DNA of 64,000 nucleotides, from assembly GCA_965219085.1 (NCBI GenBank), contig OZ244720.1, forward strand, positions 2,560,001-2,624,000, read 5' to 3'. Made by a program: the position numbers and the translations under genes. The notes beneath the pieces are model-generated. The model worked only from the letters and a program-made list of their open reading frames with translations. It did not search any database and had not been told where the DNA came from. Source of the stretch: Dehalococcoidia bacterium (GTDB lineage: Bacteria; Chloroflexota; Dehalococcoidia; UBA2979). Below are positions 10,826 to 58,516 of this stretch, in pieces (position 1 is the stretch's first letter; each line of letters begins with the position of its first letter).

Positions 10826-10831
10826 TGGTCC

Positions 10832-11560: not shown

Positions 11561-11582
11561 TGGATGGACCGAGGAGCGGCCG

Positions 11583-29606: not shown

Positions 29607-29618
29607 GTGTTGACTGGC

Positions 29619-30188
29619 CTAACGCTCTGCGCCGACCAACTCCCCTTCCCCCTCCCGTTCGAGCGCCCACTCGAAGAGGGAGATGGACGCTGGCGCGGGC
29701 CTGCGGCTCCGGCCCTTGGGCTCGGCCGGCTCCTCGGCCATGAACTCCGCCCACGAGAACAGCGTCCGCTGAGGTTCCTGAGCCTGGTCGTCCGTGACGG
29801 TGTCGAAGGCCATCGCCGCCTCTGTGACCACCGGCTCGGGCTCGGGCGCGGCCCACTCGGCGTCGACCAGCAGCGCCTCGGCCTCGGCCGCGACCTGCTG
29901 CGCCTGGGCAAAGACCGACTCCACCGAGTCGGCGTCCTCGTCGCCCGCGACGATCTTCCTCGCCAGGGCCAGCATCAGGTCGTCGCCCTCGTCCCCGTAG
30001 GCGGCGAGGCCGTCCTCGGGGAGTTCGCCCTCGACGGCGAGGGAGCTTTGCAGCTTCTTCGCCACGAGCTTGAGGGCGTCGGCCTGGAGGGTGTTCCGGT
30101 AGGCCATGAAGACGACCTGCACGGGCTGCGTCTGGCCGATGCGCCAGGACCTTCGGGAGGCCTGCCGCATCGTGTAGACGGAGTAGTC
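29619..30188 (-). pseudogene. 3' part of the ICE SF2 helicase, separated from its 5' part by the inserted element
   Basis: DYSVYTMRQASRRSWRIGQ (motif VI region) continues in frame from ..IVWFET at 56828. Confidence 0.9.
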
Positions 30189-31768
30189 GGCTCCGGTTTG
30201 GCAATCGACACGAACTCCTCGTCGGCCGGGATGGCGAGTGTGAGCGTGACGTTGTTCTCGCCGTCGATCGTCGCCTCCTCCAGCAGCAGGTCCAGCACCT
30301 CGCGGCGCTCCGCGTCGGGCAGGCCGTCGAGGCCGCCGCCGGCCCGGCGCGCCCACTCCACCACCTGCTCCACCGCGACGCGCCGGCCGGCCTGGGCCGA
30401 CGTCCTCGCCCGGTGCTCGTCGAGGCGCGCGCGCAGCCGCTCCAGCCGCTCGCCGATGAAGCGCCGCTGGTGGTCGAGCTGCTCCTCGCTGATCTTCCCG
30501 GACACGTAGAGCCGGATCGCACGGTCCTCCTCCGCCTGCACGCCCGCCAGCTCGCGCTCGGTGCGCGCGACCTCCTCGGCACCGGTGTCCTCGTCCGGGT
30601 CCAGCGCCGCCAGCCCGGCCGCGATCAGGTCCGGGTCCTGCAGGACGCGCCTGACCTCGCCCCAGACCAACTCCTCGAGCCGCTCGGCGCGGATGAACGG
30701 GTGCTCGCGGCAGCGCAGCCGGTAGGGCGCCCCCATCCCGTAGCAGCGGTAGTAGCGGCGAGGCGTCTTGAGCCTGTACGAGTAGGTCTTGCCGCGCCGC
30801 CGCGTGCTCTGGCTGCGGACCACCCGGGGACCCATCAGCATCCCGCACTCGCCGCAGTGCACGAGGTGTTGGAGCAGGTGGAAGGTCTTCGTGTTGCGCG
30901 GCGAGCGCGTCAGCCGCCGCTCGCGCAGCACGCGCGCCCGCTCCCACGTCTCCTCGTCCACGAGCGGCGGGAAGGGCACGCCGATCCAGGCGTCGCGGGG
31001 CTGCGCGTGCCTGAGCGTGCCTGAGTCGGTGGCGGTGTGGCGGGCCTTGCCGTACCACCAGGTGCCCCGGTAGGCCTCGTTGCGGAGGATGCGGTTGATC
31101 TGCGTCGCGTGCCAGCGCGCTCCCGGTATCGCCGTGGGAACGCCGTCGTCCGTGAGCGCCGCGGCGATGGCGGGCGCGCCCATGCCGTCTTCGACGTAGT
31201 GGCGGAAGATGCGCCGCACGACGGCGGCGCGCTCCTCGTCGACCTCGGGCGTGCGGCCCTCGCCGATGCGGTAGCCGTCGGGGACGTTGCTGACGGGGAT
31301 GCGGCCCTGCTTCGCGGTGCCGCGCTTGCCCATGGAGGCGCGCTCGCGGAAGTTGTCGAGCTCGATCTTGCCGATCGCGGCCATGAGCCCGAAGGTCTTC
31401 ATGTCGATCGCGTCCATGACCGCCTCGAGGCCGATGCCGTGCGCCTCGACGACCTCCATGAGGGCGGCGGCGGGGTACATGCCGCGGCTGAGGCGGTCGG
31501 ACTTCCAGCAGACGATCGTGTCGAAGCGGCCGGAGGCGGCGTCGGCGAGCATGCGCTGGAACTCGGGGCGGCTCTTGGACCAGCCGCGCCCGACCTCCTG
31601 GTAGCGGGCGGTAATGGTCAGGCCGCGCTCCGCGCAGTAGGCCTCCATGTCGCTGGTCTGCTCGCCGAGGGAGGTCTTGTCGTCCTCGGCCTGGCTCTTG
31701 TCGGAGACGCGCGCGTAGATGGCGGCGCGGCGGTTCCCGGGCTGGCGCTGTGGCTTCGTTCGTGGCAT
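29975..31768 (-). CDS. Large serine recombinase (integrase of element 30187-56827)
   Basis: AAIYARVS, DRLSR, LLQHLVHCGECG, YYRC, coiled coil; reads through the att junction at 30187 into an alternative frame of the helicase. Confidence 0.92.
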   Translation of the reverse strand: MPRTKPQRQPGNRRAAIYARVSDKSQAEDDKTSLGEQTSDMEAYCAERGLTITARYQEVGRGWSKSRPEFQRMLADAASGRFDTIVCWKSDRLSRGMYPAAALMEVVEAHGIGLEAVMDAIDMKTFGLMAAIGKIELDNFRERASMGKRGTAKQGRIPVSNVPDGYRIGEGRTPEVDEERAAVVRRIFRHYVEDGMGAPAIAAALTDDGVPTAIPGARWHATQINRILRNEAYRGTWWYGKARHTATDSGTLRHAQPRDAWIGVPFPPLVDEETWERARVLRERRLTRSPRNTKTFHLLQHLVHCGECGMLMGPRVVRSQSTRRRGKTYSYRLKTPRRYYRCYGMGAPYRLRCREHPFIRAERLEELVWGEVRRVLQDPDLIAAGLAALDPDEDTGAEEVARTERELAGVQAEEDRAIRLYVSGKISEEQLDHQRRFIGERLERLRARLDEHRARTSAQAGRRVAVEQVVEWARRAGGGLDGLPDAERREVLDLLLEEATIDGENNVTLTLAIPADEEFVSIAKPEPTTPSTRCGRPPEGPGASARRSPCRSSSWPTGTPSRPTPSSSWRRSCKAPSPSRANSPRTASPPTGTRATT

Positions 31769-31983
31769 GGCTGGCTCCTCTCAGAAACAGAACGACCCGC
31801 CACCTGCCGGGGCGGGTCCGCGAGCGGTAGCATGCTGCTCGCGTCACCTGTACCAGCAGGCGGCGCCACGGCCCGGGGCGTTCTCAGCGCCGCCGGGCCA
31901 CCTTGTCCCCCTCAGCGTAGCCGGGGCACCGCGAGGCGGTCAAAGCGGCGTCGCCACGGCGGGCTCCCCGCGCTGCGCCTTCC

Positions 31984-32175
31984 CTATCGGACCTCCGGGC
32001 GCTCCCCGTCGCCTGCCTGAGAAGCGCGGGTCGCGTGTTCGAGCAGGATCGCGGCGATGCGGCGCAGGCGCGCCTCAGCGTCGGGAGTGGGCCGGTACTC
32101 GACGGCGACCACGCGCGGCTCAGGGCCACCGGGGTGGCTGCTCCTCGTGCGCTCCCGCCGCTTCGCCGATTTCAT
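31984..32175 (-). CDS. Small protein upstream of the integrase
   Basis: 63 aa with strand-turn-helix pattern VVAVEYRPTPDAEARLRRIAAILLEHA. Confidence 0.5.
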   Translation of the reverse strand: MKSAKRRERTRSSHPGGPEPRVVAVEYRPTPDAEARLRRIAAILLEHATRASQAGDGERPEVR

Positions 32176-32922
32176 CTCGTCCGACCTCGTACGCCCGCTC
32201 CACGGGCAAAGCGTGATGGGCTGGAGCGCCGGGCGTAATCCCATGAAAGGGACTGCACCGATGACATGTTTCGGCCTTCGCTCGCCCGTCGTACCGCCCG
32301 TCGCCTCCCGTTATTGGTGCTGCTGACGGCCATCGAGTGTGCGGGGGCGGGCGTGGCGGCGGAATGCCCTATAGGGGAGGGCGCGCGTGGCCCCGCCCCC
32401 ATGGAGCGGGCGCAGCCGGGGCCGACGGGTGTCATGGGCGTGTACAGGGAAAAGACGTGAGTTCCGAGAGAGGGAAGTCCCAGAAAACGCAGGCAGGTCA
32501 AGGGGAAACGCCTCTACAGGACGCGTCGGGCAGAAATTCGGGAGGAAGCGCGTATTCCACCCGAAGACGCGGAAAGTTCCGTCGGAGGGAAGTCGGAAAT
32601 GACCATCAGGTGCGCGACATCCATGGCCTCGCCCGAGGATGCGGCGGCGATGGTCGGGGCGTCGCCGTCGGGGTCGCCGAACACACCCGGCGAGGACACG
32701 CGCCGCGTCGCTCCCGCCCCGGGCGACCGCCGTGGCGTCGTTCCGTCCCGCCCCAGGCATGGGGCGCAGCCCCTTGCGAGCGGACTTCGCGCGTGAAGCC
32801 CCCCTGTGAGGGATGGTCGCGCCGTCCCCCGACTCCGACGCTGGAAGCGGCTAGACACCCACCCTGCGGCCCGCAGGGCGGCAAAACGGGCGGGCGTTGC
32901 GCCCGCCGGGAGATGGACCAGC

Positions 32923-33105
32923 GTGAAGACCCAGCGAGCGCTGAGCGACGAGCAGGAACGGCTCCGCATCGAGGGCCTGCGCATCCTTGCGCGCATCATC
33001 GCTCGTCGCGTGCTCGCTCAGCCCCGCCCTCCTGCCGACCCAACGTCAGGGACGCGGACGGACGGGACGCAACGCGAGCGCATCCGCCTCGACCGCGGCG
33101 CGTGA
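32923..33105 (+). CDS. Small recombinase-associated protein, copy 3
   Basis: LSDEQERLRIEGLRILARIIARRVL; divergent from the integrase, as at 2755..2943. Confidence 0.6.
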   Translation: MKTQRALSDEQERLRIEGLRILARIIARRVLAQPRPPADPTSGTRTDGTQRERIRLDRGA

Positions 33106-33242
33106 GCCTCCCCCACGGCCAGCGGAGGCGCCGTTCCGCGCCAGCGCACGGGGCGAGGCTGGCGGAGCCTGCGATGCGCACCACTCCGTAGCCACTAGCG
33201 GGAACGGCTCCGTATCATCTCGCGGAGACTCCAGGGGGCGCT

Positions 33243-36200
33243 GTGGTGGCCACGGTCGACGGCACAGGCGACGCGAACAGGGACGCTCGCGTGGGGAGCG
33301 AGCCCGAAGGCGCGGACGGGACTACCGGCGATCCAATCGCGAGCCGGATCGGCGAGTGGCAGACGCGACTGCTCCAGCTCAACCGTCGGAACAACCTGCT
33401 CTATTTCAAGCCCGGGCGTAGCGCGGTCGGGATCACAGGCCTTGGTCCCGACGAACTCTATGATCGGCTCCGCCGGTCGCGGCGCGGCCTCGAGTTCCCA
33501 TACGCGCCACCGCCGAGACGACGCGGCCGGTTCGCTCAGGAAGACGAGCCCGAAGAGGAGCCCGCCGCCCCTGTCAGTTCCCGAGCTGACCTGGCGACGG
33601 ACTGCGAAGTGGTCGACTTGCAGCGGAGACTCCGCAATCTCCGCCGCCGCGACCGCGAATGGGAAGAGGAGCAGGGCCTTAACGTACTCTTCCTCGCCGT
33701 CGGATTCCTCGATTGGATTGACGCCGACGGCGAGCCGGCGCGCTCGCCGCTGGTGTTGATTCCGTGCGACCTCGAACGTGCATCGCCACGCGACCCGTTC
33801 CGCCTGCGAGCCGAGGACGACGATCCGGTAGTGAACCCCACCCTGAGCCACCAGCTTTCGATCCTGGGCGTTGACCTGCCCGCACTCGGCGGCGACTCCT
33901 CCGAGGACGAATCGCTCGACGCGTATATCGCCGCGGTCGGCGACCTCATAGGAAGTCGAGCGGACTGGGCGGTCGATGGCGGCATCGCGCTCGGCGCATT
34001 CTCGTACTCGAAGCTCGCGATGTACCAGGACCTGGAGCGGATGTTGCGTCACGGCGTCCGGAGTGACCTCACGCAACTGCTCGCCTCCGGTGGCGCCGCC
34101 CGAATCGAGCGGGCAACGGCGAGTGGCACGGCACCTGCGGCGGTGCGTGGAGAAGACCTCGCCGGCGGCCGACTGGACGACCTGCTGGATATCCGCGATC
34201 AGTACGCAGTGCTCCCGACCGACTTCAGCCAGCTGGGCGCGCTCGATCAGGCGCGCGAGGGCGGACACCTGGTCATCCACGGTCCGCCGGGCACGGGCAA
34301 GAGCCAGACGATCGCGAACCTGATCGCGACGCTCCTCGCCGACGGAAAGCGCGTCCTCTTCGTAAGCGAGAAGACGGCCGCCCTCGATGTCGTGAAGCAG
34401 CGGCTGGAGGAGTGCGAGCTCGGGGTGTTCTGCTTCGACCTGCACAGTGACCGGGGTAGGAAGAGCGAGGTCTACGCGCAGTTGCGGGAATCCGTCAACA
34501 ACCCCCGCGCGCGCATCGCCGCCGGTGTGTCCGCAGACGAACTGAAGGAGCAACGGGACCGCCTCAACCGTGTCGTGCGCAGGCTCCACGAGCGCCGGCA
34601 ACCGCTGGGGCTGTCGGTGTACGAGGTGCAGGGCCGCTTCGCAGGACTCCGTCACCTTCCCCGGTTCGAGGCGCTCAAGGCACCATCGGTCGCGGATCTG
34701 GAGCAGGAGTGGATTCGTCAGGCCGAGGCCGATGCTGGCCGGATCGCGCGGCGGCCCGCAGAGTTTCTAAGCCATGACGCCAGCCTGTGGATGCCGCTCC
34801 GAACGCCACAGCGCTCGCTACAGCTCGCGGACCTGATCCGGCACGACATGGCGGACGTACTACAAGCCGTTGAGGAGTTCCGAGCGGCCGCCCAGCCGCA
34901 CGCGGAGTGGCTCGGCGTGCGGGCGATCGGGTCCGCGGAGGATGCGCGAGCCGTGGCGCGACTGTTCGAGCTGCTCGCAGAGGCCCCGGCCGTCCCCGGT
35001 GCATGGCTCGAGCCGGGCACTGTGCCGCGTCTGCGCCGGTTGTCGCGAGAGCAGGCCGAGCAGCAGCGCGAACGCCGCCGCCTTGAAGGGGTGCTGTCGG
35101 ACGCGCTCGGTACTGAACCACCATCTATCGACTACCGCGCCGTACTGAGCCGCATACCTCTCTCGCCTGGAGATCAGGAGGCCCTCGAGGCGACGGCGGG
35201 GCGCGGCTGGCGCAGCGCCCTCGCTACCGATCCGTCGGCGCTGTTGGATGAGGCGAGCGACCTTGCCGCGGCACTCGACCGGCTGGCGGCCGGCGCCGCG
35301 GCGATCGCCGAGCCGCTCGGGAACCCGGAACTGCGCACCCTGAGCCGGATTGATCATGCAGCCGGCCTGGCGCAGCGCGTCCTCGGCTTTGATCCCGTCC
35401 CGCAACACTGGCTCACGGCCGCCGCTATCGATGAGCTGGAGGAGGAAGTCGCACAGGCGCGGTCGCTGCTCGACCAGCTCAGTAGTGAGGAGGATGCGCT
35501 CAGGGCGGACTTCTCCGACGGCCTGGTCGAGCTCGTGGATGAGGAGATGCTTGTCCGCTACCGCACGGATCACCAGAGCTTCTGGCGACGTCTCTTCCGT
35601 GGGGAGTACCGGAGTGACCAGCGCGTGCTGAGAGGCCAACTCGCGGCCCCGCGCAAGCTCTCGCCCGTCGAGTCGCTCACCGCGGTCGAGCGCGCCCTCA
35701 ACGTGCAGCGGCTGCGCGCCCGCTGGAGCGAGATCGAGTCGGAGTTGAGCGAGACTCTGGGGGCGCGCTTCCGTGGACGCGAGACGCAGTGGGAGCGAGT
35801 TGGCGAGGATTCCCGGTTGCTGCGCGGGGTGCTCACCGACTGGCGCGGAGAACCCTCCATCCTCCGCGAATTGACTGCCGCCGGAACGGACGGCGAACGG
35901 CGCCACGAGCTCGAATTGGCAACCGAGCCGCTCAACGATGCCCTCGCTCGGTACCGCAGGGCCGTGGAGGCGATCGGCCATGAGCCACTCGGCGATGCGC
36001 AACTGGACGTGGCAGCCACGGGGGAGGCGGTTCGACGGGCGTTGGAGCCGCTGCACCGCATCCGGGACGCAACGGCGGAACTCTTCCGCAGTCTCGTGAA
36101 GCCGCTCGCCGACTACTACGCGCTGATGGGACTTGTCGAGAGCGGCGTGAGGCTCATGGCGATACGTGACGAGGACGAACGCCTGGCACCGGCACTTGCG

Positions 36201-38945: not shown

Positions 38946-39313
38946 GACGCGGGCGGAGCGACCGTCGCGCGAATGCGAACGTCGAGAACGGCCCTTCCGG
39001 CAGTTGCTCGCGGACGGAACGCGCGGCAGCGTCAAGGGTTGTCGGTTTCGACACGGTCCTCTGCGAAGAACGTCGCGGCCTCACTCCGCTACAGGAGGCC
39101 CGTGAACCGGCTGAACCGGTTTTGCACCATGTGGCGCGAAACGGGCTGTTTGGGGCAGACAGACGCTGTAGAGAGAAGAACGTAGGTCAGACTGCCCCAC
39201 GGACACCACGAAAGTACTGCGAACACTGGGCTCTTCATGGGGCAGCGTGCACGACAGGCTGTCGCGGGAGAGCCCCCTACAGGAAGTGCTACGCCCGGCC
39301 TTGTGACACTTTG

Positions 39314-41323: not shown

Positions 41324-41404
41324 GTGTTGATCCGTGGCGGGCGCGTCGGTCGCGGCGCGCAGTCCTCGTCCAGCTTGCGATCAGGACGTACGTTCGTCAA
41401 CGCA

Positions 41405-41531
41405 CCACGACGGCGAGTTCGTGCCGCTGATCCCGGGCGCGCCCAAGTTCGTGAACCGGCCCTTCCACGAGCTGTTCCCGCACGGCGTTCCGCCCCTCAC
41501 GCCGCTGGTCGCCGCAAGCGACGGGCGGTAG
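41405..41531 (+). pseudogene. Remnant of a surface-protein C-terminal domain
   Basis: HDGEFVPLIPGAPKFVNRPFHELFPHGVPPLTPLVAASDG matches the last repeat of the giant protein (HDGEFVSYILGAPAFVNREFRELFADGLPAVTPLVAKSEG). Confidence 0.7.
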
Positions 41532-41930
41532 GCCCCCTCGGAGCGCGACACCGCTGCCACTGCGCGCGGCCGAGTTCGCTCCGCCTTCCGCGCAGAACGC
41601 TCTTGCCCGGCAAGCGGCGTGACGGCTGCACTCCGCAGCGCGCCACCGCGTCGCTGGTTCTCAGGCAGTCGCTCATTGCCTGAGAAGAGGCCACACGGCC
41701 CTCAATCCATGACATTCACGCTATGTTCACAGAGTAGCATCGCAAGTTCACGTCCCGTGCACTGACACCAAGCCAACGAGCAGGAAGAATTGCCCCGTTG
41801 AACCTGGGAGAGCGCAACACGCGCGCGAGGGGGCACTGGTGCGTCGGACGGTCGCGAAGTCGAACGGGAACGCGCGGCAGGCAAGCGCAACGGCGCTGCC
41901 TGCGCGCATCGCGCTACTAGAACAAACGTA

Positions 41931-41943
41931 CCCCCCCCCCCCC
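41931..41943. repeat. C13 homopolymer upstream of the surface-protein operon
   Basis: 13 consecutive C, 250 bp upstream of 42193. Confidence 0.8.
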
Positions 41944-49100: not shown

Positions 49101-52100
49101 CAGACCAGCGCGGCCCTGGACCACGAGACGAAGTCCAGCTACTCGGTGACGGTGAGCGTCGCCGACGGCGAGGGCGGCACGGACACCATCGGGGTGACCA
49201 TCAGCATCACGGACGTGGACGAACCGCCGTCGGCGCCGGCGGCGCCGGCGATCAGCGGCGTGTCGGGCTTCAACGACCGGCTGCTGGTGAGCTGGACGGC
49301 GCCGTCGGACACGGACCGGCCGGCGGTCACGGACTACGACGTGCAGTACCGCGAGAGCGGCGTCGGCGCCTGGAGCGACTGGAGTCACACGGGCACGGCC
49401 ACGACGACGACGATCACGGGGCTCGATGCGGGTGCGACGTACCAGGTGCAGGTGCGGGCCGAGAACGATGAGGGCGAGGGCGCGTGGTCGGCCTCGGGCA
49501 CGCAGGCGACCAACGCGCCGCCCGCGTTCGCCGGGTCGACGACAACGCGGGCCGTGGAGGAGAACACGGCGGCGGGGATGGGCGTGGGCGCGGTCGTGAC
49601 GGCCACCGACGCGGACAACGACACCCTGACCTACTCGCTGGAGGGGACCGACGCGAGCAGCTTCGTGATCGTCGCGAACAGCGGGGGGATCCAGACCAAG
49701 TCGAACGTGACCTACGACCACGAGGCCAAGTCGACCTACTCGGTGACGGTCCGGGCCAAGGACGGGCAGGGCGGCGACGCCACGATCAGCGTGACGATCA
49801 CGATCACGGACGTCGACGAGCCGCCCTCGGCGCCGGCGGCGCCGGGGGTCGCGTTCACCTCGGGCACGACCGACGGCCTGGACGTGAGCTGGGACGCGCC
49901 GGTCGACACGGGCAAGCCGCCTCTCACGAGCTTCGAGGTGCAGTACCGCAAGACCAGCGCCAGCACCTGGGCCACTTGGCTTTTCGTCGGCCCGGGCGCG
50001 ACGGCGAAGATCAAGGGCCTGGATGCCGGTACGGAGTACGAGGTCCAGGTGCGGGCCAACAACGACGAAGGCATGAGCGCCTGGTCGGCCTCGGGCATGG
50101 CGGAGACGGACGCCGCCCCGGCCTTCGCGTCGGGCGACTGCCAGTACAACAGCTGCACGGTCACGTTCGGCGAGAGCCTCGACAGCACGTCGGGCAACAC
50201 GCCGCCGGTGGGCGCCTTCACGCTCACGGCCGGTGGCGCCAGCCTGACGATCGGCGGCGTCAGCGTCAGCGGCACGACCGTGACGCTGTCGTCCGTGTCC
50301 CCCTTCATCAGGCAGGGCCAAGCGATCACGCTGGCCTACGCCGACCCCAGCACCAACAACGACACCGCGGCTCTGCAGGACGCCCTGGGCAACGATGTCG
50401 CCTCGTTCAGCGAGACGCTGACCAACAGCTCCCCCTACGACTTCCCCTCGGAGCCGACGCAGCTGAGTGCGCTCCAGAACGGCCGCAACCAGATCGACGT
50501 CGAGTGGACGGCGCCGACCGACAACGGCGGCGATGCGAACTTCAGCTACCGGTTGGAGGTGTCGACCGACGCTGGCGCGAATTGGACCACGCAGGTCGCC
50601 AGTCAGACCGCCACCACGTACAACCACACGGGCCTGATGGCGGGCGACACGCGGCACTACCGGGTCTTCACGGTCAACATCATCGGCGACAGCCGGGCCT
50701 CCAGCACGGCCAGCGCCACCACCAACCGTCCGCCGACGGGCGCGCTGGTGATCGACGGCACGGCCCAGGTGGCCGAGAAGCTGACGGCGAACACGTCCAA
50801 CATCTCCGACGCCGACGGCCTGCCCGCGGACGATCAATTCAACTTCCAGTGGCTCCGGGTCGCCGGCGGCAACGAGTTCAGCATCCCCGGGGCCACGCAG
50901 TCCAGCTACCGGCCGGTCCCGGCCGACCTGGGCCAGACGCTGCGGGTGCGGCTCGACTACGACGACAACGCCGAGTTCGCCGAGACGCTGACCAGCGCGG
51001 CGACGGCGGCGGTGCAAGAGTCCCCCTACGGGGAGATCGTCTGGGCCGCCACGCTCACGGCGGGGCAGGCGGGCACGACCCTCGGCTTCAACAGCACCGG
51101 CCCGGTCGGCTCCTTGGAGGCGAAAACGTTCGCGCCCGGCGCCATCACGGTGAGCCAGCTCACCTACGACGGCGGCGCGGGGACGTTCGCCGTCACGGGC
51201 TTGGGTTCGGGCGACTACATCCTCTATCTCGGCAGCGGGCCGCAAGGCGCGCACGCGCTGATCGTGGATCCGGCGTCGGACGCCGACGACGTCTTCGACT
51301 TCTCCAGCACCGGGCTGAGCTGGAGCGCCGGTCAAGCGGTGGAAGTGCGGCTGACGCTGAACCGCGAGCCCGTGGGCGTGCCCTTGATCAGCGGCGCGGC
51401 CGTCGAGGGGACAACCCTGACGGCCGGGATCGAGAACGTCACGGACGCCGACGGCCTGCCCGCCTCCGATCAGTTCCGCTACCAGTGGATCGTGACCGAC
51501 GGGGGGACCGAGTCCGAGATCACGGGGGCGACCGGCACGACCTATACGCCGGAGCTGACCGACCTCGGCAAGACCTACACGGTGCGGGTCGACTACACCG
51601 ACAACGCCAACTTCCCCGAGTCGCTGACCAGCGCGCCCACGGATCCGATCGAGGTACGCGGGCAGGTCATCTGGTCGGCGGAGCTGACCGTCGAGGGCTG
51701 GGGCGAGCCAAGCCTCAGATCTTTCGGTTTCGATGCATCATCCGCGACCGTCCGTGGGGCGCTGCAGCCGGACACGATCATCCACAACGGCGCCTACGAG
51801 GTCGAATCGCTGCTCTACTCCGGCCATCAGAGCTTCGGGACCGGCCCCGTGCTGAACAAGACGATGCTGTTCTCGACGACCACCGAGCTGCCGGCGGGCG
51901 ACTATGCCCTCTGGGTGGTGGATGACGACGGCGACGCCGATCTGGGCGATCTTCCGTTCATCTTCCCGGCAGCCGATGCGGATGGATTCTTGCAGAATCC
52001 CGTCGTGCTGACCTGGGCAGACGATGACACGGTGGACGTGCGGCTCACGGTCAACCGCCTGCCCGGCGGCGCGCTCACGATCAGCGGCCAGGCCAAGGTG

Positions 52101-55100
52101 GGCACCACGGTGACGGCGGACGTCTCGGGCGTCTCCGACGCCGACGGCCTGCCCGCCAGCGGCGAGTTCCGGTACCAGTGGTTCACCGTTGACAGCGGCT
52201 CCAACACGCCGATCGGCGGTGAGACGGATCAGAACTACACGCCGGTGAGCGCCGATCTCGGGAAGTCGATCAGGGTGCGGCTGCGCTACACCGACGACGC
52301 CTTCTTCACCAACACCGTGTTCAGCGCCGCGGCGGTGGTGGCGTCGGGCACGGGCAACCACCCGCCGCAGTTTTCCACGACCTCCACGTCGCGGACGTTG
52401 ACCGAGAACACGGGGGCGGGCGTGAACGTCGGCGCGGCCGTCAGCGCCAGCGACGCCGACAGCGGCGACAGCCTGACCTACACGCTGGAGGGGACGGACG
52501 CCGGCTCGTTCGACATCGTCCCGGCGAGCGGGCAGATCCAGACCAAGACGGGCGTGACCTACGACTTCGAGACGCAGACGAGCTACTCCGTGACGGTCAA
52601 GGCCGACGACGGCAACGGTGGCACCGACACCGTCGCGGTGACCATCAACGTCGTGAACGTCAACGAGCCGCCGGTGATCAGCGGGGTGTCCAGTGTGAGC
52701 TACGCCGAGGGAGGCACGGCAGAGGTCGCCAGCTACAGCGCGACGGACGAGGAGGGGGCCACGATCACGTGGTCGCTCTCGGGCACGGACGCCGGCGACT
52801 TCGAGATCGGCGCCAACAGCGGTGTGCTGACCTTCAAGACCTCGCCGGACTACGACAACCCCGCGGATGGGAACGGCGACAACGACTACCTCATCAGGGT
52901 GCAGGCCTCGGACGGGACGAACCTGGTCCCGTTCGACGTGACCGTGACCGTCACCGGGGTGGACGAACTCCCGACCATCCCCAGCGGTCCGGCCAGCGTG
53001 GACTACGCCGAGAACGGCACGGCGGCGGTCGCGACCTACAGCGCGACGGACCCGGAGGGCGACACGATCACCTGGGCGCTGATAGGCCCCGACGCCGGCG
53101 CCTTCGCGATCGACGCCGGCGGCGTGCTGACGTTCGCCGCCACGCCCGACTACGAGAACCCCAGCGACCAGGGCGGCCAGTCCGGCGACAACGTGTACAG
53201 CCTGCTCGTCGTGGCCTCGGACGCCGGGAACAACACCGCCTTGCTGGCCGTGACCGTGACCGTCACGCCCGTGGACGAGACTCCCGTGGTCGGCGGCCAG
53301 GCGAACGTGAGCTACGCAGAGAACGGCACGGCCGATGTCGAGACCTACAGCGCGGCGGACCCGGAGGGCGACCCGATCACCTGGTCGCTGGCGGGCGCCG
53401 ACGCCGGCGACCTCGCGATCGACGCCACCGGCGTGCTGACGTTCACCGCCCCGCCCGACTACGAGGACCCCCGCGACCAGGGCGGCGACAACGAGTACGT
53501 CGTGACGGTGCAGGCCTTCGACGGGACGAACATGGGCACGCGCGAGGTGACCGTCACGGTCATCGACGTGAACGAGCCGCCGGTCATCAGCGGCGATGCG
53601 ACCGTCGGCTTCGCCGAGCACGCCACGGGCAGCGTCGCCACCTACACCGCCGACGATCCCGATGACGCCACCATCATCTGGACGCTGGCGGGGACGGACA
53701 GCGGGTTCTTCTCCCTCAGCGGCGGCGTGCTGACCTTCGACACGCCGCCCAACTTCGAGCTCCCACAGGACGCGAACTTCAGCAACGACTACGAGATCAC
53801 GATCGGGGCCTCCGACGGGGCCAACCCGGTGAGCCAGGCGGTGACCGTCACGGTCGTCGACCTCGAGGAGCCGGGGACGATCAGCCTCTCCTCGCCGCAG
53901 CCGCAGGTCGGGACCGGGCTGACGTCCACGCTCGATGAGCGGGACGCGATTGTCGTCGCCGCCGTCCGGAAGTGGCATCGCTCGCCCGACGGGAGCACCG
54001 CTTGGACCCTCATCCTGGGGGCCACGGCGAGCAGCTACACGCCCGTGCAAGGCGATCTGAACTATTACCTGCGGGTGACGGTGTCGTACACCGACACGCA
54101 CGGCCCCAAGACGCCGGAGGCCGTCTCGGAGAACGCGGTGCGGCCGGTGCCGGCCGGCGCCAACCATCGTCCCGAGTTCGACGAGGGCTTCAGCACGACC
54201 CGCTCCGTCGCCGAGAACTCGGCCGGCGACACGCCCATCGGCGACCCGGTGGAAGCTACCGACGCCGACCCCGCCGACGTCGTCGCACTGACCTACTCGC
54301 TCTCGGGCTCGGACCTCTTCACGGTCGACCCCGCCACGGGGCAGATCGCGGTCGCGGAGGGCGCGGTGCTCAACCACGAGGCGCAGGCTTCGCACACGGT
54401 CACGCTGACCGTCGCGGATCCCGGCGGCCTGGAAGACACCATCACCGTCACCATCACCATCACCGACGTGAACGAAGCGCCCGAGCCGGTGGGCGACGAC
54501 GCCACGACCAACGAGGACACGCCTGTCATGATCGAGGTGCTGGACAACGACAGCGACCCCGAGGATGACGACCTCACTGTCTCCTCGTTCAACTCCCCGG
54601 CCAACGGCTCGGTGGCGAGAGCCCGCGACGACCCCAACAAGCTCACCTACACCCCCGACCCCGACTTCCACGGCGTGGACACGTTCACCTACCAGGCGAC
54701 CGACGCTAGGGGCCTCTTCGGGGAGGCCACGGTCGTCGTGATGGTGAACCCGGTGAACGACGCGCCGGAGTTCCCCGCCGGCCCGGTCCAGCGCTCCGTC
54801 GTCGAGACCGCGCAGGCAGGGGACAAGGTGGGCGACCCGGTGGAGGCCATCGACCCGGATGTCGGCGACACGCTGACGTACGCACTCTCGGGCATCGACG
54901 TGAGCAGCTTCGGGATCGACGGGGACACGGGCCAGATCACCGTGGCCGCCGACGTCGATCTCGAACCGACGACCGAGGATAACCTCGCCCTCAGCGTCAC
55001 CGTGACTGCCACAGAGGTGCGCACCGATGGGCAGTCTCCCGCCAGCGACAGCATCCAGGTCACCATCACCGTCACGACCGGTTCCACCGGTCCCGTCATC

Positions 55101-56711
55101 AGCGGCGGCGGCGGGGGTGGTGGCGGCCCGTCGGGGCCCTCGCCGAGCGAGCTGGACTTCGAGTGGAACGTGAAGCGCGACCTCGAAGCGCTGGACGGCG
55201 GCCACGACACGCCGACCGGCTCCTGGTCGGACGGCACAACCCTCTGGATACTCGAAAACGGCTCCGGCGCCGACGACGCCATCTACGCCTACGACCTGAA
55301 CACGGGCGAACGCCTGGAGGAGCGCGAGTTCGAACTCGACGAGCGCAACCGCGCACCGCGCGGCGTCTGGTCCAACGGCACGGTCATCTGGGTCTCCGAC
55401 AGCGGCCAGGACCGCCTCTTCGTCTACGACCTCGGGACGGGCGAGCGGCTGCCGGAGCGCGACCTCGAGCTCGGCGAGCGCAACGGCGGCGCCCGCGGCA
55501 TCTGGTCCGACGGCGTCACGATGTGGGTGCTCGACAGCCTCTTCGCCTACGACCTCGGGAGCGGCGAGCTGCTGGCGGAGTACGCCCTCGACGACGCCAA
55601 CGGGAGTCCCCACGGGATCTGGTCGGACGGCGTCACGATCTGGGTCTCGGACCACGGCGCGAAGCGGCTCTTCGCCTACCGCCTCGAGGATGGGGCGCTC
55701 GTACGCAACAGCGAGGAGGAGTTCACGGAGCTGAGCAAGGCCTCCAACAACAGCCCGCGCGGCATCTGGTCGGACGGCGAGGTGATCTACGTGGCCGACG
55801 AGAGCGACGACAAGGTCTACAGCTACAACATGCCCGACGCGATCGACGCGCGCCTCGCCTCACTGTCGCTGAGCGGCATCGAGATCGGGGAGTTCTCGGG
55901 GGACCGCACGGAGTACGACGGCGTCGCCGCCGAGGGCGTGACGGAGACGACGGTCGAGGCGGAGGCGATGCAGCGCCGTACGGATGTCGCCATCGACCCG
56001 CCCGACGGCGACGGGGACGAGGCGAACGGGCACCAGGTGGCGCTGGAGGGCGTCGAAGAGATCACCGTCACCGTCACCTCGGCCGACGACAGCCGCACGA
56101 AGGTCTACCGTGTGCGCTTCCCTGAGGTGGCGTGGGACCCGGCCCGCGATCCCTGGCCGCACTGCCTGCGCGGCGCCGTCTCCGAGGGCTTCAGTCTCAT
56201 CGTCTACGAGGGGGGCAGCGTCGAAGAGCTGCTCGCCTGCGCGGAGAGCCGGGAGATCGTGGCCCTCTACGCCCTGCATGAGGGTGTCTACATTTCCTAC
56301 ATCCTCGGGGCGCCGGACTTCGTCAACCGCGAGTTCACTGAGCTGTTCGCCGGCGGGTTCCCGGTCATGACGCCTCTCGTCGCCGGCAGCAACGGACCGC
56401 CCTCGGCGGACCCGTTCGGGGATGACCTTGACGCCGCTGGGCCGCAGCCGTGGCCGGAGTGCCTGCGCGGGGACGTTGTCGAGGGCTTCAGCCTCGTCAT
56501 CTACGAGGGCGGTAGCGTCGATGATCTCGTGAACTGCGCAGAGAGCTTGCGCGTCACGGCCCTCTACGCGCTCCACGACGGCGAGTTCGTCTCCTACATC
56601 CTCGGCGCGCCTGCGTTCGTGAACCGCGAGTTCAGGGAGTTGTTCGCCGACGGCCTGCCCGCCGTCACGCCGCTGGTCGCCAAGAGCGAGGGGCCTCACG
56701 AGGCCAACTGA
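43191..56711 (+). CDS. Giant (~4500 aa) secreted S8 kexin/furin-like protease-adhesin: PPC-like, S8 + P-domain, WSDG propeller repeats, cadherin/FN3/Ig-like repeats, paired C-terminal domain
   Basis: Catalytic VAVVD / HGTYVAG / AAGN / GTSAATP; P-domain (DLQIELESPDG..GAWKLRV); many GxWSDGxTMWV repeats; cadherin DxD..LDYE..DVNE motifs; FN3 YxVQVRA. Confidence 0.93.
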   Translation: MRRPRPPAHGGRRAFLLARLGRNIHALLLRNAWMLLAALLVSPLLVLHATGVAGQTIETRDGDTFATATDISLGASVEGEIDSADDPDYFKLDLSGQSGTTDVVISTTGSTDTTGKLYGSDEMLIMEDDNSGTDTNFHMEETLSPGVYYVLVEGSGSATGSYTLYAKPVLSPGSSVEMSIDSIGEVDHHILDLTGETGTTDVSLFAVSDNLRLVRSNGSKPDRLTNTDALGQRRVLHHWYYTDVDGGTAYAFDVKSDDVEEESWRTGDYRVHFATVPSGAGSFFDPTTLSLDVPTSGKLRSLDHYFGLTLDEPKDLVIMTFLSARAVILDSDGNEISVNDTYDHSSEYLYSTISDDFAAGNYFVKISAPDANSFNPVYYALYAYEDTGYGEWSDACDVATGALTFQVSDPLYACQWHLNSADSAGMDIDVESVWASVTGAGVNVAVVDETIDYSHEDLAANVDSTLSYDYGPLSSAYRSIDHHGTYVAGVIAARDNAIGVRGVAPRATIYGYNLLGDGETLFSHDRAVDAMSRNQDVTGVSNNSWGLSGDSAGFVMAPTQWWTVLDGGVTQGYGGKGVFYVFAAGNGHPYGANSNLDEMINHYGVTAVCAVGAEDTRASYSEQGVNLWVCAPSQGGYEGDAAADRAIVTTENSDRYTNAFVGTSAATPIVSGVAALLRQVNPALTWRDLKLILAASARKNDPGNAGWTDGTRKYGSSNASDTYHFNREYGFGMVDAGAAVALARSWSLLPPFLDDSEQSSPLNAAIPDNNTSGITSSLTLDTDIEFTEFVEVEVTIDHSYWRDLQIELESPDGAVSTLAVAAQVSPSASPGTFRFGSAKHLGEDPNGAWKLRVSDQVAVDSGTLESWSIKVYGHGSTIRAASTGPTTATATVWQHNPDSASRTVHLRHSDNDGATWSTPAVQTTTGASVEFSVTGLAPNAEYKLQASLDGAFADKVQADFVNRPARQDIGTASPSRNLKGLWSDGTTMWVADRTNFRIYAYTLATGARDADKDISNLAGAGNTHPEGIWSNGTTMWVSDFFDEKLYAYALDGGARDADKEFNLAAANTSHWGLWSDGATIWVADSGDEKLYAYALDGGAREADKDINTLAAGNAYPWGLWSDSTTMWVSDLSNGRVYAYTLATGADEGRKFNTLAAGNGNPFGIWSDGKTMWVADSQGKLYAYYVPANTNLSALSVNGTPVADFRPGFTTYQLAVANLVTQATVSGDAADGDATVAYGGAANATGQVDLVEGRNVVTVTVTAEDAAITKDYTVSINRASAAPYGWRADKDLDTLAAAGNTFPFDIWSDSTTAWVVDWQDQKLYAYTLATGARNAVKEFDLKSGNTSPTGIWSDGATIWVGDSQDDMFYAYMLDTGARVSNKDLDPSLVAVGDLWSDGTTMWMADFGNRKLYAYTVVTGRRNPDKDIDLTTTNVYGHGLWSDGTTMWVADLQGKLYAYALDGGARKAGQDFDTLAAAGNISSRGIWSDGETMWVADSHDAKIYAYNMPPPNSPPEFSDGASTTRSVAENTAPGENVGSAVAATDVDGDTLTYTLEGTDAASFDIVTTSGQILTSAALNYEQKTSYSVTVSVADGEGGTDTIGVTINVTDVNEKPATPGPPTVTATANITTSLDVSWTAPGLNGGPALTGYEVRYRISGSWIDWTHSGTGTSATITGLTASTTYDVQVRALNGETPSAWSSTGTGSTGTPANNAPEFSDGASTTRSVAENTASGANVGSAVTATDADGDTLTYTLDGTDAASFDITSTSGQILTSAALNYEQKTSYSVTVSVADGEGGTDTIGVTISVTDVNEKPTTPGAPTVTATSNTTDSLDVSWTAPGLNGGPALTGYEVRYRISGSWIDWTHSGTGTSATITGLTASTTYDVQVRALNGETPSDWSSTGAGSTGTPANNAPEFSDGTSTARSVAENTASGANVGSAVTATDADGDTLTYTLGGTDAASFSIVGASGQIQTSAALDHETKSSYSVTVSVADGEGGTDTIGVTISITDVDEPPSAPAAPAISGVSGFNDRLLVSWTAPSDTDRPAVTDYDVQYRESGVGAWSDWSHTGTATTTTITGLDAGATYQVQVRAENDEGEGAWSASGTQATNAPPAFAGSTTTRAVEENTAAGMGVGAVVTATDADNDTLTYSLEGTDASSFVIVANSGGIQTKSNVTYDHEAKSTYSVTVRAKDGQGGDATISVTITITDVDEPPSAPAAPGVAFTSGTTDGLDVSWDAPVDTGKPPLTSFEVQYRKTSASTWATWLFVGPGATAKIKGLDAGTEYEVQVRANNDEGMSAWSASGMAETDAAPAFASGDCQYNSCTVTFGESLDSTSGNTPPVGAFTLTAGGASLTIGGVSVSGTTVTLSSVSPFIRQGQAITLAYADPSTNNDTAALQDALGNDVASFSETLTNSSPYDFPSEPTQLSALQNGRNQIDVEWTAPTDNGGDANFSYRLEVSTDAGANWTTQVASQTATTYNHTGLMAGDTRHYRVFTVNIIGDSRASSTASATTNRPPTGALVIDGTAQVAEKLTANTSNISDADGLPADDQFNFQWLRVAGGNEFSIPGATQSSYRPVPADLGQTLRVRLDYDDNAEFAETLTSAATAAVQESPYGEIVWAATLTAGQAGTTLGFNSTGPVGSLEAKTFAPGAITVSQLTYDGGAGTFAVTGLGSGDYILYLGSGPQGAHALIVDPASDADDVFDFSSTGLSWSAGQAVEVRLTLNREPVGVPLISGAAVEGTTLTAGIENVTDADGLPASDQFRYQWIVTDGGTESEITGATGTTYTPELTDLGKTYTVRVDYTDNANFPESLTSAPTDPIEVRGQVIWSAELTVEGWGEPSLRSFGFDASSATVRGALQPDTIIHNGAYEVESLLYSGHQSFGTGPVLNKTMLFSTTTELPAGDYALWVVDDDGDADLGDLPFIFPAADADGFLQNPVVLTWADDDTVDVRLTVNRLPGGALTISGQAKVGTTVTADVSGVSDADGLPASGEFRYQWFTVDSGSNTPIGGETDQNYTPVSADLGKSIRVRLRYTDDAFFTNTVFSAAAVVASGTGNHPPQFSTTSTSRTLTENTGAGVNVGAAVSASDADSGDSLTYTLEGTDAGSFDIVPASGQIQTKTGVTYDFETQTSYSVTVKADDGNGGTDTVAVTINVVNVNEPPVISGVSSVSYAEGGTAEVASYSATDEEGATITWSLSGTDAGDFEIGANSGVLTFKTSPDYDNPADGNGDNDYLIRVQASDGTNLVPFDVTVTVTGVDELPTIPSGPASVDYAENGTAAVATYSATDPEGDTITWALIGPDAGAFAIDAGGVLTFAATPDYENPSDQGGQSGDNVYSLLVVASDAGNNTALLAVTVTVTPVDETPVVGGQANVSYAENGTADVETYSAADPEGDPITWSLAGADAGDLAIDATGVLTFTAPPDYEDPRDQGGDNEYVVTVQAFDGTNMGTREVTVTVIDVNEPPVISGDATVGFAEHATGSVATYTADDPDDATIIWTLAGTDSGFFSLSGGVLTFDTPPNFELPQDANFSNDYEITIGASDGANPVSQAVTVTVVDLEEPGTISLSSPQPQVGTGLTSTLDERDAIVVAAVRKWHRSPDGSTAWTLILGATASSYTPVQGDLNYYLRVTVSYTDTHGPKTPEAVSENAVRPVPAGANHRPEFDEGFSTTRSVAENSAGDTPIGDPVEATDADPADVVALTYSLSGSDLFTVDPATGQIAVAEGAVLNHEAQASHTVTLTVADPGGLEDTITVTITITDVNEAPEPVGDDATTNEDTPVMIEVLDNDSDPEDDDLTVSSFNSPANGSVARARDDPNKLTYTPDPDFHGVDTFTYQATDARGLFGEATVVVMVNPVNDAPEFPAGPVQRSVVETAQAGDKVGDPVEAIDPDVGDTLTYALSGIDVSSFGIDGDTGQITVAADVDLEPTTEDNLALSVTVTATEVRTDGQSPASDSIQVTITVTTGSTGPVISGGGGGGGGPSGPSPSELDFEWNVKRDLEALDGGHDTPTGSWSDGTTLWILENGSGADDAIYAYDLNTGERLEEREFELDERNRAPRGVWSNGTVIWVSDSGQDRLFVYDLGTGERLPERDLELGERNGGARGIWSDGVTMWVLDSLFAYDLGSGELLAEYALDDANGSPHGIWSDGVTIWVSDHGAKRLFAYRLEDGALVRNSEEEFTELSKASNNSPRGIWSDGEVIYVADESDDKVYSYNMPDAIDARLASLSLSGIEIGEFSGDRTEYDGVAAEGVTETTVEAEAMQRRTDVAIDPPDGDGDEANGHQVALEGVEEITVTVTSADDSRTKVYRVRFPEVAWDPARDPWPHCLRGAVSEGFSLIVYEGGSVEELLACAESREIVALYALHEGVYISYILGAPDFVNREFTELFAGGFPVMTPLVAGSNGPPSADPFGDDLDAAGPQPWPECLRGDVVEGFSLVIYEGGSVDDLVNCAESLRVTALYALHDGEFVSYILGAPAFVNREFRELFADGLPAVTPLVAKSEGPHEAN
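47720..49220 (+). repeat. Intragenic 600-bp tandem repeat (cadherin+FN3 unit), ~2.5 copies
   Basis: ccggagttcagcgacggg recurs at about 47727, 48327 and 48927 with near-identical DNA. Confidence 0.9.
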
Positions 56712-56827
56712 TCGCTCTTCGCTGCCTGCGCCAGCTCGTAACGGCAACCGCCTATCGGCCTGGTGGAGGCAACGCCGCCTCCCATGAGTAGCGCAGCGTT
56801 TGGTGTGGATTGGAAAACCGAGACCTC

Positions 56828-58516
56828 CGTCTCGAACCAGACGATCGTCGGGAAGTCGACGAGGTCGAGGCCCGTCTGCACGAGCCGCGGGTGGCAGACG
56901 AGCACGTCGGCACCCTCCTCGACGCGCTGCGCCACCCACGCCTCGCGGCGCTCAGGCGGGACGGCGTCGGACTTCATGACGGCCACCCGGAAGCCGTGGC
57001 GGCCGAGGAAGTCCTCCATCCGCCCCGTGATGTCGCGCGTCCCGGTGTGGGTCGCGTAGACGAGCACCCGGCGGCCCTGGACCCGCTCGGCGGCGACGAG
57101 GTCGACCAGCGCCTGCTCCTTCGGGTAGAGCTTCTCCGCAGGGAGCGGCGGCACCTGTACGAGCAGCTCTTCGCCCTCCGGGTCGAAGACCGCCTCGCCG
57201 CGCGTGCAGCCGTCGGGGTAGGCCAGCAGCGTCTGCAGGTAGGTCGCGAGCAGCCGCCGCGAGCCCTTCGAGAGCGCGTCGGCGAGCGCCGCCCGCAGCG
57301 TCCCGAAGAGCGTGTCGTAGCCGCTGTGCTGCGAGAGCCCGGCGGCGTCCGCCTCCGCGTCCATCGAGGAGAGCAGCACGCGCTCCTCGTAGGCCGGGAG
57401 TCCCGAGGCCACGTCGGCGAGCCGCAGGAAGACGCTGTTGCCGATGAGGTGGAAGAGGGCGGCCGGGGCGAGCCCCGGGCGCTCCCGGATCACCTTCCGG
57501 TACTTGCGCCTGCGGCTCGTGCGCCCGTCCTCGAGTGAGTCGCCGTCGTCGCGGCCGATCGTGTGCTCGACGAAGCCGTAGCGCTCGATCCAGCGGCCCT
57601 CCTCGGAGCGCCCGAACTCCCCCCGAATCTCCGGGCTGAACCGGTAGAGCAGGTGGAAGAGCGTCGAGGAATAGCCGCCCATGAGCGTGCCGCTCAGGCT
57701 GAGCGACTTGCCGCAGACGTCGGCGAGGATGCCGGCGGCGATGCCCTGGGCGGAGCCGCGGCCCTTGTACTCGTGCACCTCGTCGCCGACGAGCAGGTCG
57801 AAGAAGCCCTTCAGGCGGTGCTTCACGTAGTCGGCGAGCGGGTAGCGCTTCGGACCGGAGCGGTCGGCCTGCCAGAGGGCGGAGCCGCACTCCGGGCACC
57901 AGCGCTTGCGGCGGCCGAGGTCACGGCCGAGCAGGGGCACGCCGTCCTTGTCGACGATCTGGGCGTGGCAGTCCGGGCAGCACGGCACGCGGAACGGCTC
58001 GCCCGTCTCCTCGTGGCGGACGAGGCGGCCGCGCACCGTCGCCCAGCGCTCCACCGTGGCGGGCTGCCAGCGGTAGGAGAGCTTGGCGCGCTCGCGCGAC
58101 ATGATCGCGAAGAGCGGGCCGAGGCCGGTCGTGGCGCGCAGCCGCTCGAGGTCGGTGATCGAGGCGACGATGACGGCGCGGGCGCCGGGCACCGTCTCCT
58201 CGACCTCGCGCTTCCACTTGCGGGTGAGGTGCGGCGGGCAGAGCACGAGCACCCGCTCGAAGCCGGCCATGTGCGCCGCCGAGGCGGCGATGAAGGTCTT
58301 GCCCGTGCCCATCTCGCCGACCACGGTCGTGCCGCGCTGCGCCTCGAGCGAGAGCGCCGCGCCGCGGATCGCGTCGGCCTGCGCCCCCAGGGGAGCGCGC
58401 AGCAGGGGCGGGAGTTCGCGGCCCGGCTCGGAGGGCCGGTAGCGGGGTGGGTAGGACTCCACCACCCGCCGGGCGATGGCGTCGCGGTATGCGTCGATGA
58501 ATCCTGCGAGGTCCAT
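56828..58516 (-). CDS. SF2 (SNF2-like) helicase of ICE backbone, 5' part (interrupted)
   Basis: GEMGTGKT, Zn fingers CPDC/CPEC, GDEVHE, LSGT, LVQTGLDL. Motif VI is missing and is found at 30188. Confidence 0.9.

Follow-up and report, generated by a model that had tools for sequence, protein, structure and literature searches.

A putative integrative and mobilizable element inserted at a GA dinucleotide in the helicase gene of a Dehalococcoidia conjugative element

Why does a conserved helicase gene break off in the middle of a codon and resume more than 26 kb away on the same strand? The question is raised by a 64,000-nucleotide stretch of the genome of a Dehalococcoidia bacterium (assembly GCA_965219085.1, contig OZ244720.1), hereafter the window, which corresponds to bases 2560001-2624000 of a single 3.31-Mb contig. 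The gene encodes a SNF2-like helicase and belongs to an integrative and conjugative element (ICE). We consider it highly probable that window positions 30189-56825 are an integrative and mobilizable element (IME), inserted by a large serine integrase at a GA dinucleotide inside this gene, which lies at the end of a ~26-kb ICE carrying a type IV secretion system (T4SS) and located beside a tRNA-Gln gene.

The split helicase gene, the island and its host element

Read on the minus strand, the 5' junction is ..TTCGAGACG GA GGTCTCGG.., with GA at 56827-56826, and the 3' junction is ..CCGGAGCC GA CTACTCC.., with GA at 30188-30187. This dinucleotide was the only sequence common to both junctions, and no longer direct repeat was present. 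The open reading frame (ORF) starting at 58516 (MDLAGFID) tracks its orthologues as far as ..IVWFET and then runs through 43 unrelated residues to a stop at 56696; a second stretch, 30188..29619, encodes DYSVYTMRQASRRSWRIGQ... through to the stop. Together, the 1691 nt of the first part (58516..56826) and the 568 nt of the second (30186..29619) amount to 2259 nt, i.e., 753 codons. In a 14-row alignment comprising the two window parts, four intact and eight short homologues, the window parts abutted with no residue missing or doubled, and the intact orthologues P0007, P0008, P0012 and P0016 (750-758 aa) read without a gap through ..W[FY]ET DYSVYTMRQASRRSWRIGQ.. across the insertion point. This point falls within the most conserved block of the aligned helicases. 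We take ..ETDYSVYTMRQASRRSWRIGQ.. to be the SNF2 block D-W-N-P ... Q-A-x-x-R-x-H-R-I-G-Q (motif VI region), with GA in the codon of the first Asp.

The inner arms, which belong to the element, form an inverted repeat with 17 of 23 positions matched, compared to 11 of 23 for the helicase arms. In 20,000 adjacent 23-mer pairs drawn at random from the window, 17 matches were never attained (mean 6.5, sd 2.2). The 2-bp core, the imperfect inverted-repeat arms and the lack of a longer direct repeat are features of serine-integrase attachment sites. Further, the unoccupied site (attB) of the intact orthologue at locus L089 carries the identical 12 nt, GA and then an identical 3' arm except for one base. 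We infer that recombination between attL and attR would restore every codon of the helicase.

A second copy of the host element was found at genome positions 719407-746409; it is colinear with the window copy, about 88% identical, and its helicase is unbroken. Homology between the two copies begins exactly at window position 56826, and on the other side it stops shortly past the helicase stop codon, so that the helicase is the terminal gene of the ~26-kb ICE. A first-pass annotation of this DNA had claimed a helicase split by a 26.6-kb serine-integrase element, a joined 753-codon ORF (1691+568 nt), a 17/23 inverted repeat around GA, a conserved ICE helicase motif as target and restoration of the gene on excision, and had advised a search for uninterrupted orthologues. 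The junctions and the intact same-genome copy bore out the split, the joined ORF aligned full length with intact orthologues, which were found and read straight across the insertion point, the inverted repeat exceeded all random pairs, the target stretch was highly conserved, and recombination at the core would yield a sequence like that of the intact orthologues.

At the helicase-3' end of the island lies an integrase ORF with the domains PF00239 (Resolvase, 86.8 bits), PF07508 (Recombinase, 66.6) and PF13408 (Zn_ribbon_recom, 37.8), all above their cut-offs. From these domains it was assigned as a large serine recombinase, with recombination activity predicted. The protein matched PHROG 95 'integrase' at 338 bits; its top NCBIfam match was XisF, with 85 bits vs. 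a cut-off of 375, and no NCBIfam name scored above its cut-off. It is 28% identical to the ICE's own recombinase, and the two integrase copies in this genome share 90% identity. Residues 527-597, the last 71 codons, are helicase DNA past the crossover read in another frame; the earlier identification of 29975..31768 as a serine integrase thus holds for the ORF and its three domains, but not for these last 71 codons, which belong beyond the crossover. A scan of one genome per species recovered 249 integrase relatives, of which the best 80 were analyzed as loci. In all 80 loci the divergence sets in at one and the same protein position, so the attachment site overlaps the integrase gene's 3' end across the family, and the C-terminal tail must therefore differ between the integrated and the excised states. 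A short ORF upstream of the integrase (86 aa, Table 1) was considered as a directionality factor and rejected, as its amino-acid identity to sister islands (73-80%) was not above the nucleotide identity (~82%) and it matched no family.

The genes 5' of the helicase, all on the minus strand, encode a DUF6094 methyltransferase, two SSB proteins, a Rad52-like protein and a Toprim protein. Beyond the window, and reaching genome position 2642042, follow TrbL/VirB6, a T4SS pilin, a VirB4-like ATPase (TraC/AAA_10), a TrwB-like coupling protein (TrwB_AAD_bind), a Replic_Relax protein and a large serine recombinase (557 aa). The host element thus holds a T4SS ATPase, a coupling protein, a pore component, a relaxase and an integrase within ends defined by the comparison with the second copy and by tRNA-Gln, in agreement with the earlier description of the locus as an element inside an element. 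The ICE recombinase ORF, L001:16369-18042(+), runs over the element end into the tRNA-Gln gene, L001:17949-18022(-); to our knowledge, location at tRNA genes is unusual for serine-recombinase ICEs. The second ICE copy (recombinase 744768-746409) ended in an apparently different tRNA-like sequence. Plasmid records with homologues of the helicase (35-46% identity) numbered 331, of which 117 were rated conjugative, and 29 of 30 longer homologues were DUF6094-helicase fusions, which indicates that the methyltransferase and helicase pair seen here is the split form of a common mobile-element backbone protein.

The 26,637 bp between the two GA cores contain genes that were judged by G+C content at third codon positions (GC3) and by family searches (Table 1). 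The 1900-aa helicase-nuclease matched the PADLOC candidate PDC-S37 (1270 bits) and Hhe (501 bits) and is a defence candidate. The PF13814 protein is the island's candidate relaxase; it is 33% identical to the Replic_Relax protein of the ICE over ~560 aa (E 3e-45), and its presence agrees with the earlier claim that the insert has a relaxase-like gene of its own. For streptococcal IMEs, PF13814 is listed as one of the relaxase families (MobC; PMC5357655). No T4SS, capsid, portal or terminase family was detected among the island ORFs scanned by family searches, and the PHROG 'tail' matches coincided with fn3 repeats of the giant protein. With an integration module of its own (an open integrase ORF at the island end), a relaxase-family gene and no T4SS family in the scanned ORFs, the island has the makeup of an IME. 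Three further ORFs were rejected as genes: a plus-strand 913-aa ORF (38942..41683) with no family match, where the minus-strand ORF has Replic_Relax and higher GC3, and those at 32337..33191 and 41748..42476, which look like Arg-rich off-frame reads.

Table 1. Features of the split helicase locus and of the ~2.4-kb insertions in related genomes. Positions refer to the window unless a genome handle is given.
Feature	Position	Strand	Remarks
ICE helicase 3' part, DYSVYTMRQASRRSWRIGQ... to stop	29619..30186	-	GA of its first codon at 30188-30187
Large serine integrase ORF, 597 aa	29975..31768	-	native part 30189..31768 (526 aa)
Crossover dinucleotide GA, helicase-3' junction (attR-type)	30187..30188	-	
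86-aa ORF, no family match, coding uncertain	31984..32244	-	inside a ~0.8-kb stretch upstream of the integrase, conserved among related islands
1900-aa DUF4011 / AAA_11 / AAA_12 / MTES_1575 nuclease / DUF3320 protein, cargo	33243..38945	+	from family searches
Replic_Relax (PF13814) protein, 669 aa, candidate relaxase	39314..41323	-	35.9 bits vs. cut-off 25.3
333-aa protein, cargo	42193..43194	+	signal-peptide-like N-terminus, one fn3 domain
4513-aa secreted giant protein, cargo	43170..56711	+	signal-peptide-like start, subtilase S8 + P-domain, cadherin, fn3 and Big_9 repeats
Conserved far-end arm (attP half-site + ~20 nt beyond)	56781..56825	-	also found behind helicase 5' fragments at 4 further sites of this genome, and in other genomes
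Crossover dinucleotide GA, helicase-5' junction (attL-type)	56826..56827	-	
ICE helicase 5' part, codons 1-563 + GA of codon 564	56826..58516	-	ResIII; called ORF extends to 56696 (43-aa island-end tail)
DUF6094 methyltransferase	58610..59644	-	directly upstream of the helicase
Two SSB genes, Rad52-like gene, Toprim gene	61504..63931	-	SSB 61504-61902 and 62053-62598; Rad52-like 62644-63498; Toprim 63560-63931
~2.4-kb insertions	G001:C1 near 1264184-1266575, 2338382-2340773 and 2890311-2892702; G003:C1 2508348-2510736		

The gene of the giant protein has an 8.4-kb paralogue (89.6% identity) elsewhere in the genome. A chromosomal array of giant cadherin/fn3 genes lies at about genome positions 585000-720000, where a 1.2-kb sequence resembling window 41400-42600 stands in front of several of the genes, and one giant gene of this array ends 0.5 kb from the helicase of the intact ICE copy. 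More than 20 relatives (65-90% identity) of the final 1.6 kb of the island's giant gene (55100-56700) occur in the genome.

Other observations concern the surroundings of the island. The tandem SSB genes lie on a 0.6-kb direct duplication (window 61418-62556, 92% identity), and the second ICE copy has the same pair. A 691-aa ORF (27256-29331(-)) located immediately beyond the ICE end showed weak matches to DUF1156 / N6_N4 methylase, and scored 77 bits against NCBIfam 'anti-phage-associated DUF1156', whose cut-off is 1000. The left half of the window carries remnants of further ICE copies (22185-22736(-), 3383-4951, 10333-12656; genome 2559402-2561760). They comprise another helicase 3' fragment (75% identical in aa), one more ICE-type recombinase, its third copy (85% nt identity), and an internal duplication of 2.3 kb (88.7%). 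The helicase fragment at 22185-22736 was rejected as another attR, since it has no integrase upstream and its flank is ambiguous (attP arm or decayed helicase).

Recurrence and target choice of the island family

A search with the first 582 helicase residues returned 2568 proteins at E <= 0.001 (8000 scored candidates). Most of the 120 best homologues were 742-763 aa long with ResIII and Helicase_C domains, and those with a source name were labelled as Chloroflexi/Chloroflexota or Dehalococcoidia metagenome-assembled genomes. At the insertion site, 84 of the 120 read D-Y-S and 11 H-Y-S, and nine (the window's own included) leave the helicase exactly at the insertion codon to continue into an arm-encoded tail, E/Q-x-x-V-x-QSTP. 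The anchor expression was missed by 16, among them 13 full-length proteins with the usual C-terminus and one partial; P0065, P0092 (short) and P0030 (long) were left unclassed. Closely related helicases occur in both states (92% identical intact, 94% identical interrupted).

The same picture was obtained from the integrase side. The helicase 3' part is abutted at residue 1-2 by 19 of the 80 integrase loci, with GA as the core at 17 of them, CA at one and apparently GG at another. Other genomes with an insertion at the same codon, which the first-pass annotation had proposed to look for, were therefore found in both searches. A close relative (E <= 1e-120) was present in 19 of 301 sampled genomes of the class (G000 included), spread over at least five families. 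This genome itself contains five attL-type junctions (helicase 5' fragment followed by the arm) and two of the attR type (integrase end followed by the helicase 3' part). An attR-type pattern, the counterpart of the attP pattern used below, matched 17 stretches in the genome contig collection and four in metagenome contigs, and the same two junction types recurred in independent assemblies, complete chromosomes included. One integrase/helicase junction (L008, VYDD01000060.1) lies on a 9.2-kb contig binned as Gammaproteobacteria, through either a binning error or transfer outside the phylum.

Both junctions could be paired in three other genomes, delimiting islands of ~17.2, 20.3 and 24.2 kb which share with the window only the far-end arm and a 2.3-2.9-kb integrase module and, in one case, also the relaxase. 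Their cargo consists of an XamI-type restriction-modification pair, a CHAT protein, an RCC1 protein, a permease and a trypsin-like protease in the first; a type I restriction-modification system in the second; and a PLD-SNF2 helicase, a methyltransferase-like protein and a GajB-like UvrD helicase in the third. These findings confirmed a recurrent island family with swappable cargo and a conserved integrase module and ends.

Serine integrases require matching central dinucleotides, and the core was found to covary with its target. Intact helicases of the Asp type read ..ACG GA C/T TAC.., and those of the His type (L092, L095, L096, L097) read ..ACG CA C/T TAC... The only fully paired case comes from genome G005, where a His-type helicase carries an island whose two junctions (L091, L004) both have CA. 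This GA/CA covariation, with its single fully paired case, fits the core acting as the predicted crossover, and the Asp-to-His change at the core codon could represent target escape followed by adaptation of the element.

Other integrases of the family are associated with other ICE genes. With homologues of the ICE recombinase at L001:16369-18042 as the reference, 26 of the 80 loci (within L034-L082) were found to lie against an ICE-type serine recombinase gene, on the strand opposite to it and next to its N-terminal part. The recombinase gene breaks off after residue 142 (..ESVDEFYSENL block) in 18 of these loci and after residue 247 (..NE.YTGT block) in the other eight. Such islands target the ICE's own integrase gene. 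The same recombinase gene is abutted on the same strand by one more locus, the ICE relaxase by another, and 33 of the 80 abut none of 13 tested proteins (11 from the ICE, two from the island). A tree was built from 78 of the 80 loci together with the window integrase and the second copy in this genome; L029 and L051 were excluded because they were too short or contained stops. Helicase-targeting fell into two clades, each with 100 support in the Shimodaira-Hasegawa-like approximate likelihood-ratio test (SH-aLRT), and needed five changes on the tree vs. a mean of 17.8 after shuffling, with none of 500 shuffles as low; as near-copies inflate such clustering, the tree shows only that target specificity is inherited.

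Taken jointly, and as a tentative proposal, a guild of related serine-integrase islands may colonize Dehalococcoidia ICEs, with each clade aimed at a different conserved ICE gene (helicase block VI, two recombinase sites, relaxase) and with exchangeable cassettes for defence or surface proteins. On this view, the change from GA to CA, together with the CA-core islands that match it, would amount to an arms race of escape and chase over one dinucleotide, and excision may re-arm the gene.

The helicase gene is a target for several kinds of selfish insert. In several copies, the same helicase is split at residues 251-256 by a ~2.4-kb insertion (Table 1). The one copy scanned, near G001 2890311-2892702, encodes a 622-aa protein with reverse transcriptase, intron maturase and HNH domains (ORF L086:10395-12263(-)), and from this content it looks like a group II intron. 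Further, some longer fused helicase homologues carry the intein domains PF14528, PF14890 and PF07591. In this genome, two helicase 3' fragments (at 1924132 and 1906878 on the minus strand) have in common an upstream flank of another kind. It joins them ~12 nt ahead of the GA core, and this points to an insert of a further type, whose junction is close by but not the same.

Comparison with known elements

In streptococci, serine-integrase IMEs insert in conserved genes of Tn5252-superfamily ICEs, namely snf2, maff2 and traG (PMC5357655), and those in snf2 have been described repeatedly (PMC5357655, PMC5704250). For one IME_SNF2, the site of recombination was placed within the integrase gene (PMC5357655). 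ICESp2905 is described as transferring with an IME in its helicase-related gene (PMC5704250, PMC5357655). An ICE carrying IME_SNF2 was transferred at ~2e-3 per donor and retransferred, with IME excision not detected (PMC7168690).

IME_SNF2 and the 'tet(O) fragment' IMEs resemble the present island in that a serine-integrase island sits site-specifically in an ICE helicase gene (methylase + helicase module) and disrupts it, the island carries a relaxase, and many decayed copies and truncated target genes occur (PMC5357655, PMC5704250, PMC7168690). The target there is the ICE methylase/helicase gene; here, the DUF6094 methyltransferase lies directly upstream, and the methyltransferase and the helicase are separate genes. 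The hosts also differ, being Firmicutes in the streptococcal case and Chloroflexota (class Dehalococcoidia) here, where the ICE has a Replic_Relax relaxase, and the cargo is tet(O)/erm(B) there but defence candidates and a giant secreted protein here. The likeness is one of anatomy. Literature searches on such elements in Chloroflexota (sponge/ICE/serine recombinase; IME/defence/serine integrase) found nothing. The nesting of helicase-targeting serine-integrase IMEs in ICEs is already known from streptococci and hence less new than the first-pass annotation assumed.

Gene-interrupting elements that are excised during development include skin (in sigK), SPbeta (in spsM) and the fdxN element with XisF. 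As in the present case, a large serine recombinase is involved, the insertion splits an ORF and excision would restore it. However, these elements interrupt host genes and excise in terminally differentiated cells, whereas the island described here has its target in another mobile element, is recurrent with varied cargo and has no known regulated excision. Phage large serine integrases such as those of phiC31 and Bxb1 use a 2-bp non-palindromic crossover and imperfect inverted-repeat att sites whose cores must match. The present integrase shares the domain set, the 2-bp core and the inverted-repeat att sites with them, and the GA/CA covariation fits core matching; in contrast, the island is devoid of phage genes, and its integrase ORF crosses attP. 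Finally, ICEs of the SXT/R391 family carry anti-phage systems as exchangeable cargo in hotspots. Exchangeable anti-phage cargo on conjugative elements is thus common to both, but here it is borne by a separate integrase-bearing island within an ICE gene and not in an intergenic hotspot.

Mobility, alternative explanations and significance

In the mechanism that we propose, the large serine integrase would place the island by site-specific recombination at GA; the conserved integrase module and the two end arms would be kept (with Replic_Relax in some relatives), and the remainder would be swappable cargo. The island may travel passively within the ICE or, after excision, through the coupling protein and pore of the ICE, and loss of the helicase probably costs the ICE little.

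Several results weigh against an IME that is still mobile. The attP, or excised, junction had no match in this genome, and no attP form occurred among the best 80 related integrase loci. A degenerate 39-nt attP pattern matched one stretch in the genome contigs, a relic without an integrase, and none in the metagenome contigs; this absence is weak evidence, because the matched attR pattern itself found just 17 and 4 stretches. The 90% identity of the two integrase copies argues against a recent copy, and the surplus of orphan junctions (five attL-type vs. two attR-type) shows decay and rearrangement. Further, no directionality factor or origin of transfer (oriT) was identified among the island features, and the role of the candidate relaxase is read from family assignment only.

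The relic, L225 (G306:C314 18857-18895), consists of ~35 nt of the integrase 3' end, GA and the far-end arm, which shows that the two ends were once joined at GA, and nothing more. It adjoins defence-like genes (an AAA_15/AAA_21 ATPase and a DNA methylase), and an unoccupied attB-like site in a decayed helicase (29583-30133) lies 11 kb away in inverted orientation. Matches to an 18-nt attP probe (more than 120 in the genome contigs, from unrelated taxa) were discarded as chance, the best agreeing at 44 of 80 arm positions beyond the probe. In G004:C1, a helicase 5' junction (505339-506748(+)) and an integrase/helicase-3' junction (522754-524888(-)) face each other in inverted orientation 16.5 kb apart, which implies rearrangement; the helicase 5' part is additionally split there at residue ~95-99 by ~3.3 kb. 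The idea that this attL/attR pair and the attB/attP pair on C314 are two states of one invertible segment was rejected, as only the helicase 3' part is shared.

It is possible, although we do not favour it, that the island arrived as an IME and is now a fixed cargo island, which the ICE carries along passively and which no longer moves in any other way. For this copy, there is neither attP nor empty-site evidence, decay of sister copies in the genome is widespread, and the giant-protein cassette (41400-56736) looks secondarily acquired from the chromosomal array (89.6% over 8.4 kb). A seemingly complete IME_SNF2 of S. suis likewise did not excise (PMC7168690). However, the integrase ORF is open with its three domains, both arms and both cores are intact, and the Replic_Relax ORF is open, all of which speak against this reading.

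The first-pass annotation had proposed that the island may switch the host ICE off until it excises, i.e., that it holds the helicase, and hence transfer or establishment of the ICE, inactive until regulated excision, as skin does in sigK and SPbeta in spsM. Exact restoration of the reading frame by excision at GA, the location of the site in the most conserved helicase block and the occurrence of close helicase relatives in both states are compatible with such a role, and a staged excise-transfer-reinsert model was raised by the streptococcal authors (PMC5357655). Yet no excised form was found in this genome, among the 80 loci or in the metagenome contigs, and the many orphaned or decayed junctions resemble parasitism and decay and not a maintained switch. 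Related integrases hit other ICE genes, including the ICE recombinase, which fits the target choice of a hitch-hiker better than regulation. The assumption that transfer requires the helicase has nothing behind it; the S. suis ICE with IME_SNF2 transferred without detectable IME excision (PMC7168690). Since a streptococcal ICE can transfer with its IME in place, the switch is a possible but unsupported reading, and we regard it as unlikely.

A prophage or phage satellite that uses a serine integrase, in place of a conjugatively mobilized island, is very improbable: serine integrases are common in phages and the integrase matched PHROG 95, but no capsid, portal, terminase or tail module was present, a relaxase-family gene was, and the target is an ICE gene. 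That unrelated repeats were wrongly joined in the assembly is hardly credible, given that the break relative to the intact paralogue is base-exact and the same two junctions occur in many independent assemblies including complete chromosomes, even though the region is repeat-rich and the four public runs that contain it do so only as Logan unitigs of ~80-182 nt, which break ~10 nt from the junction, none of those listed bridging 56826 and no loose end being informative. The small word shares seen in sponge, coral and marine metagenome runs provide no evidence of habitat.

An IME inserted by a serine integrase into the helicase gene of an ICE, an arrangement so far described in Firmicutes, is thus very probably also present in Chloroflexota (Dehalococcoidia), with unrelated cargo; its appearance in a second phylum gives it the look of a general strategy and not of a peculiarity of streptococci. 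The family also represents a natural set of serine integrases with precisely mapped attB/attP pairs and a core-dinucleotide variant, i.e., raw material for studies of specificity. For the uncultured Dehalococcoidia, it suggests a way in which defence systems and giant surface proteins may pass from one to another.

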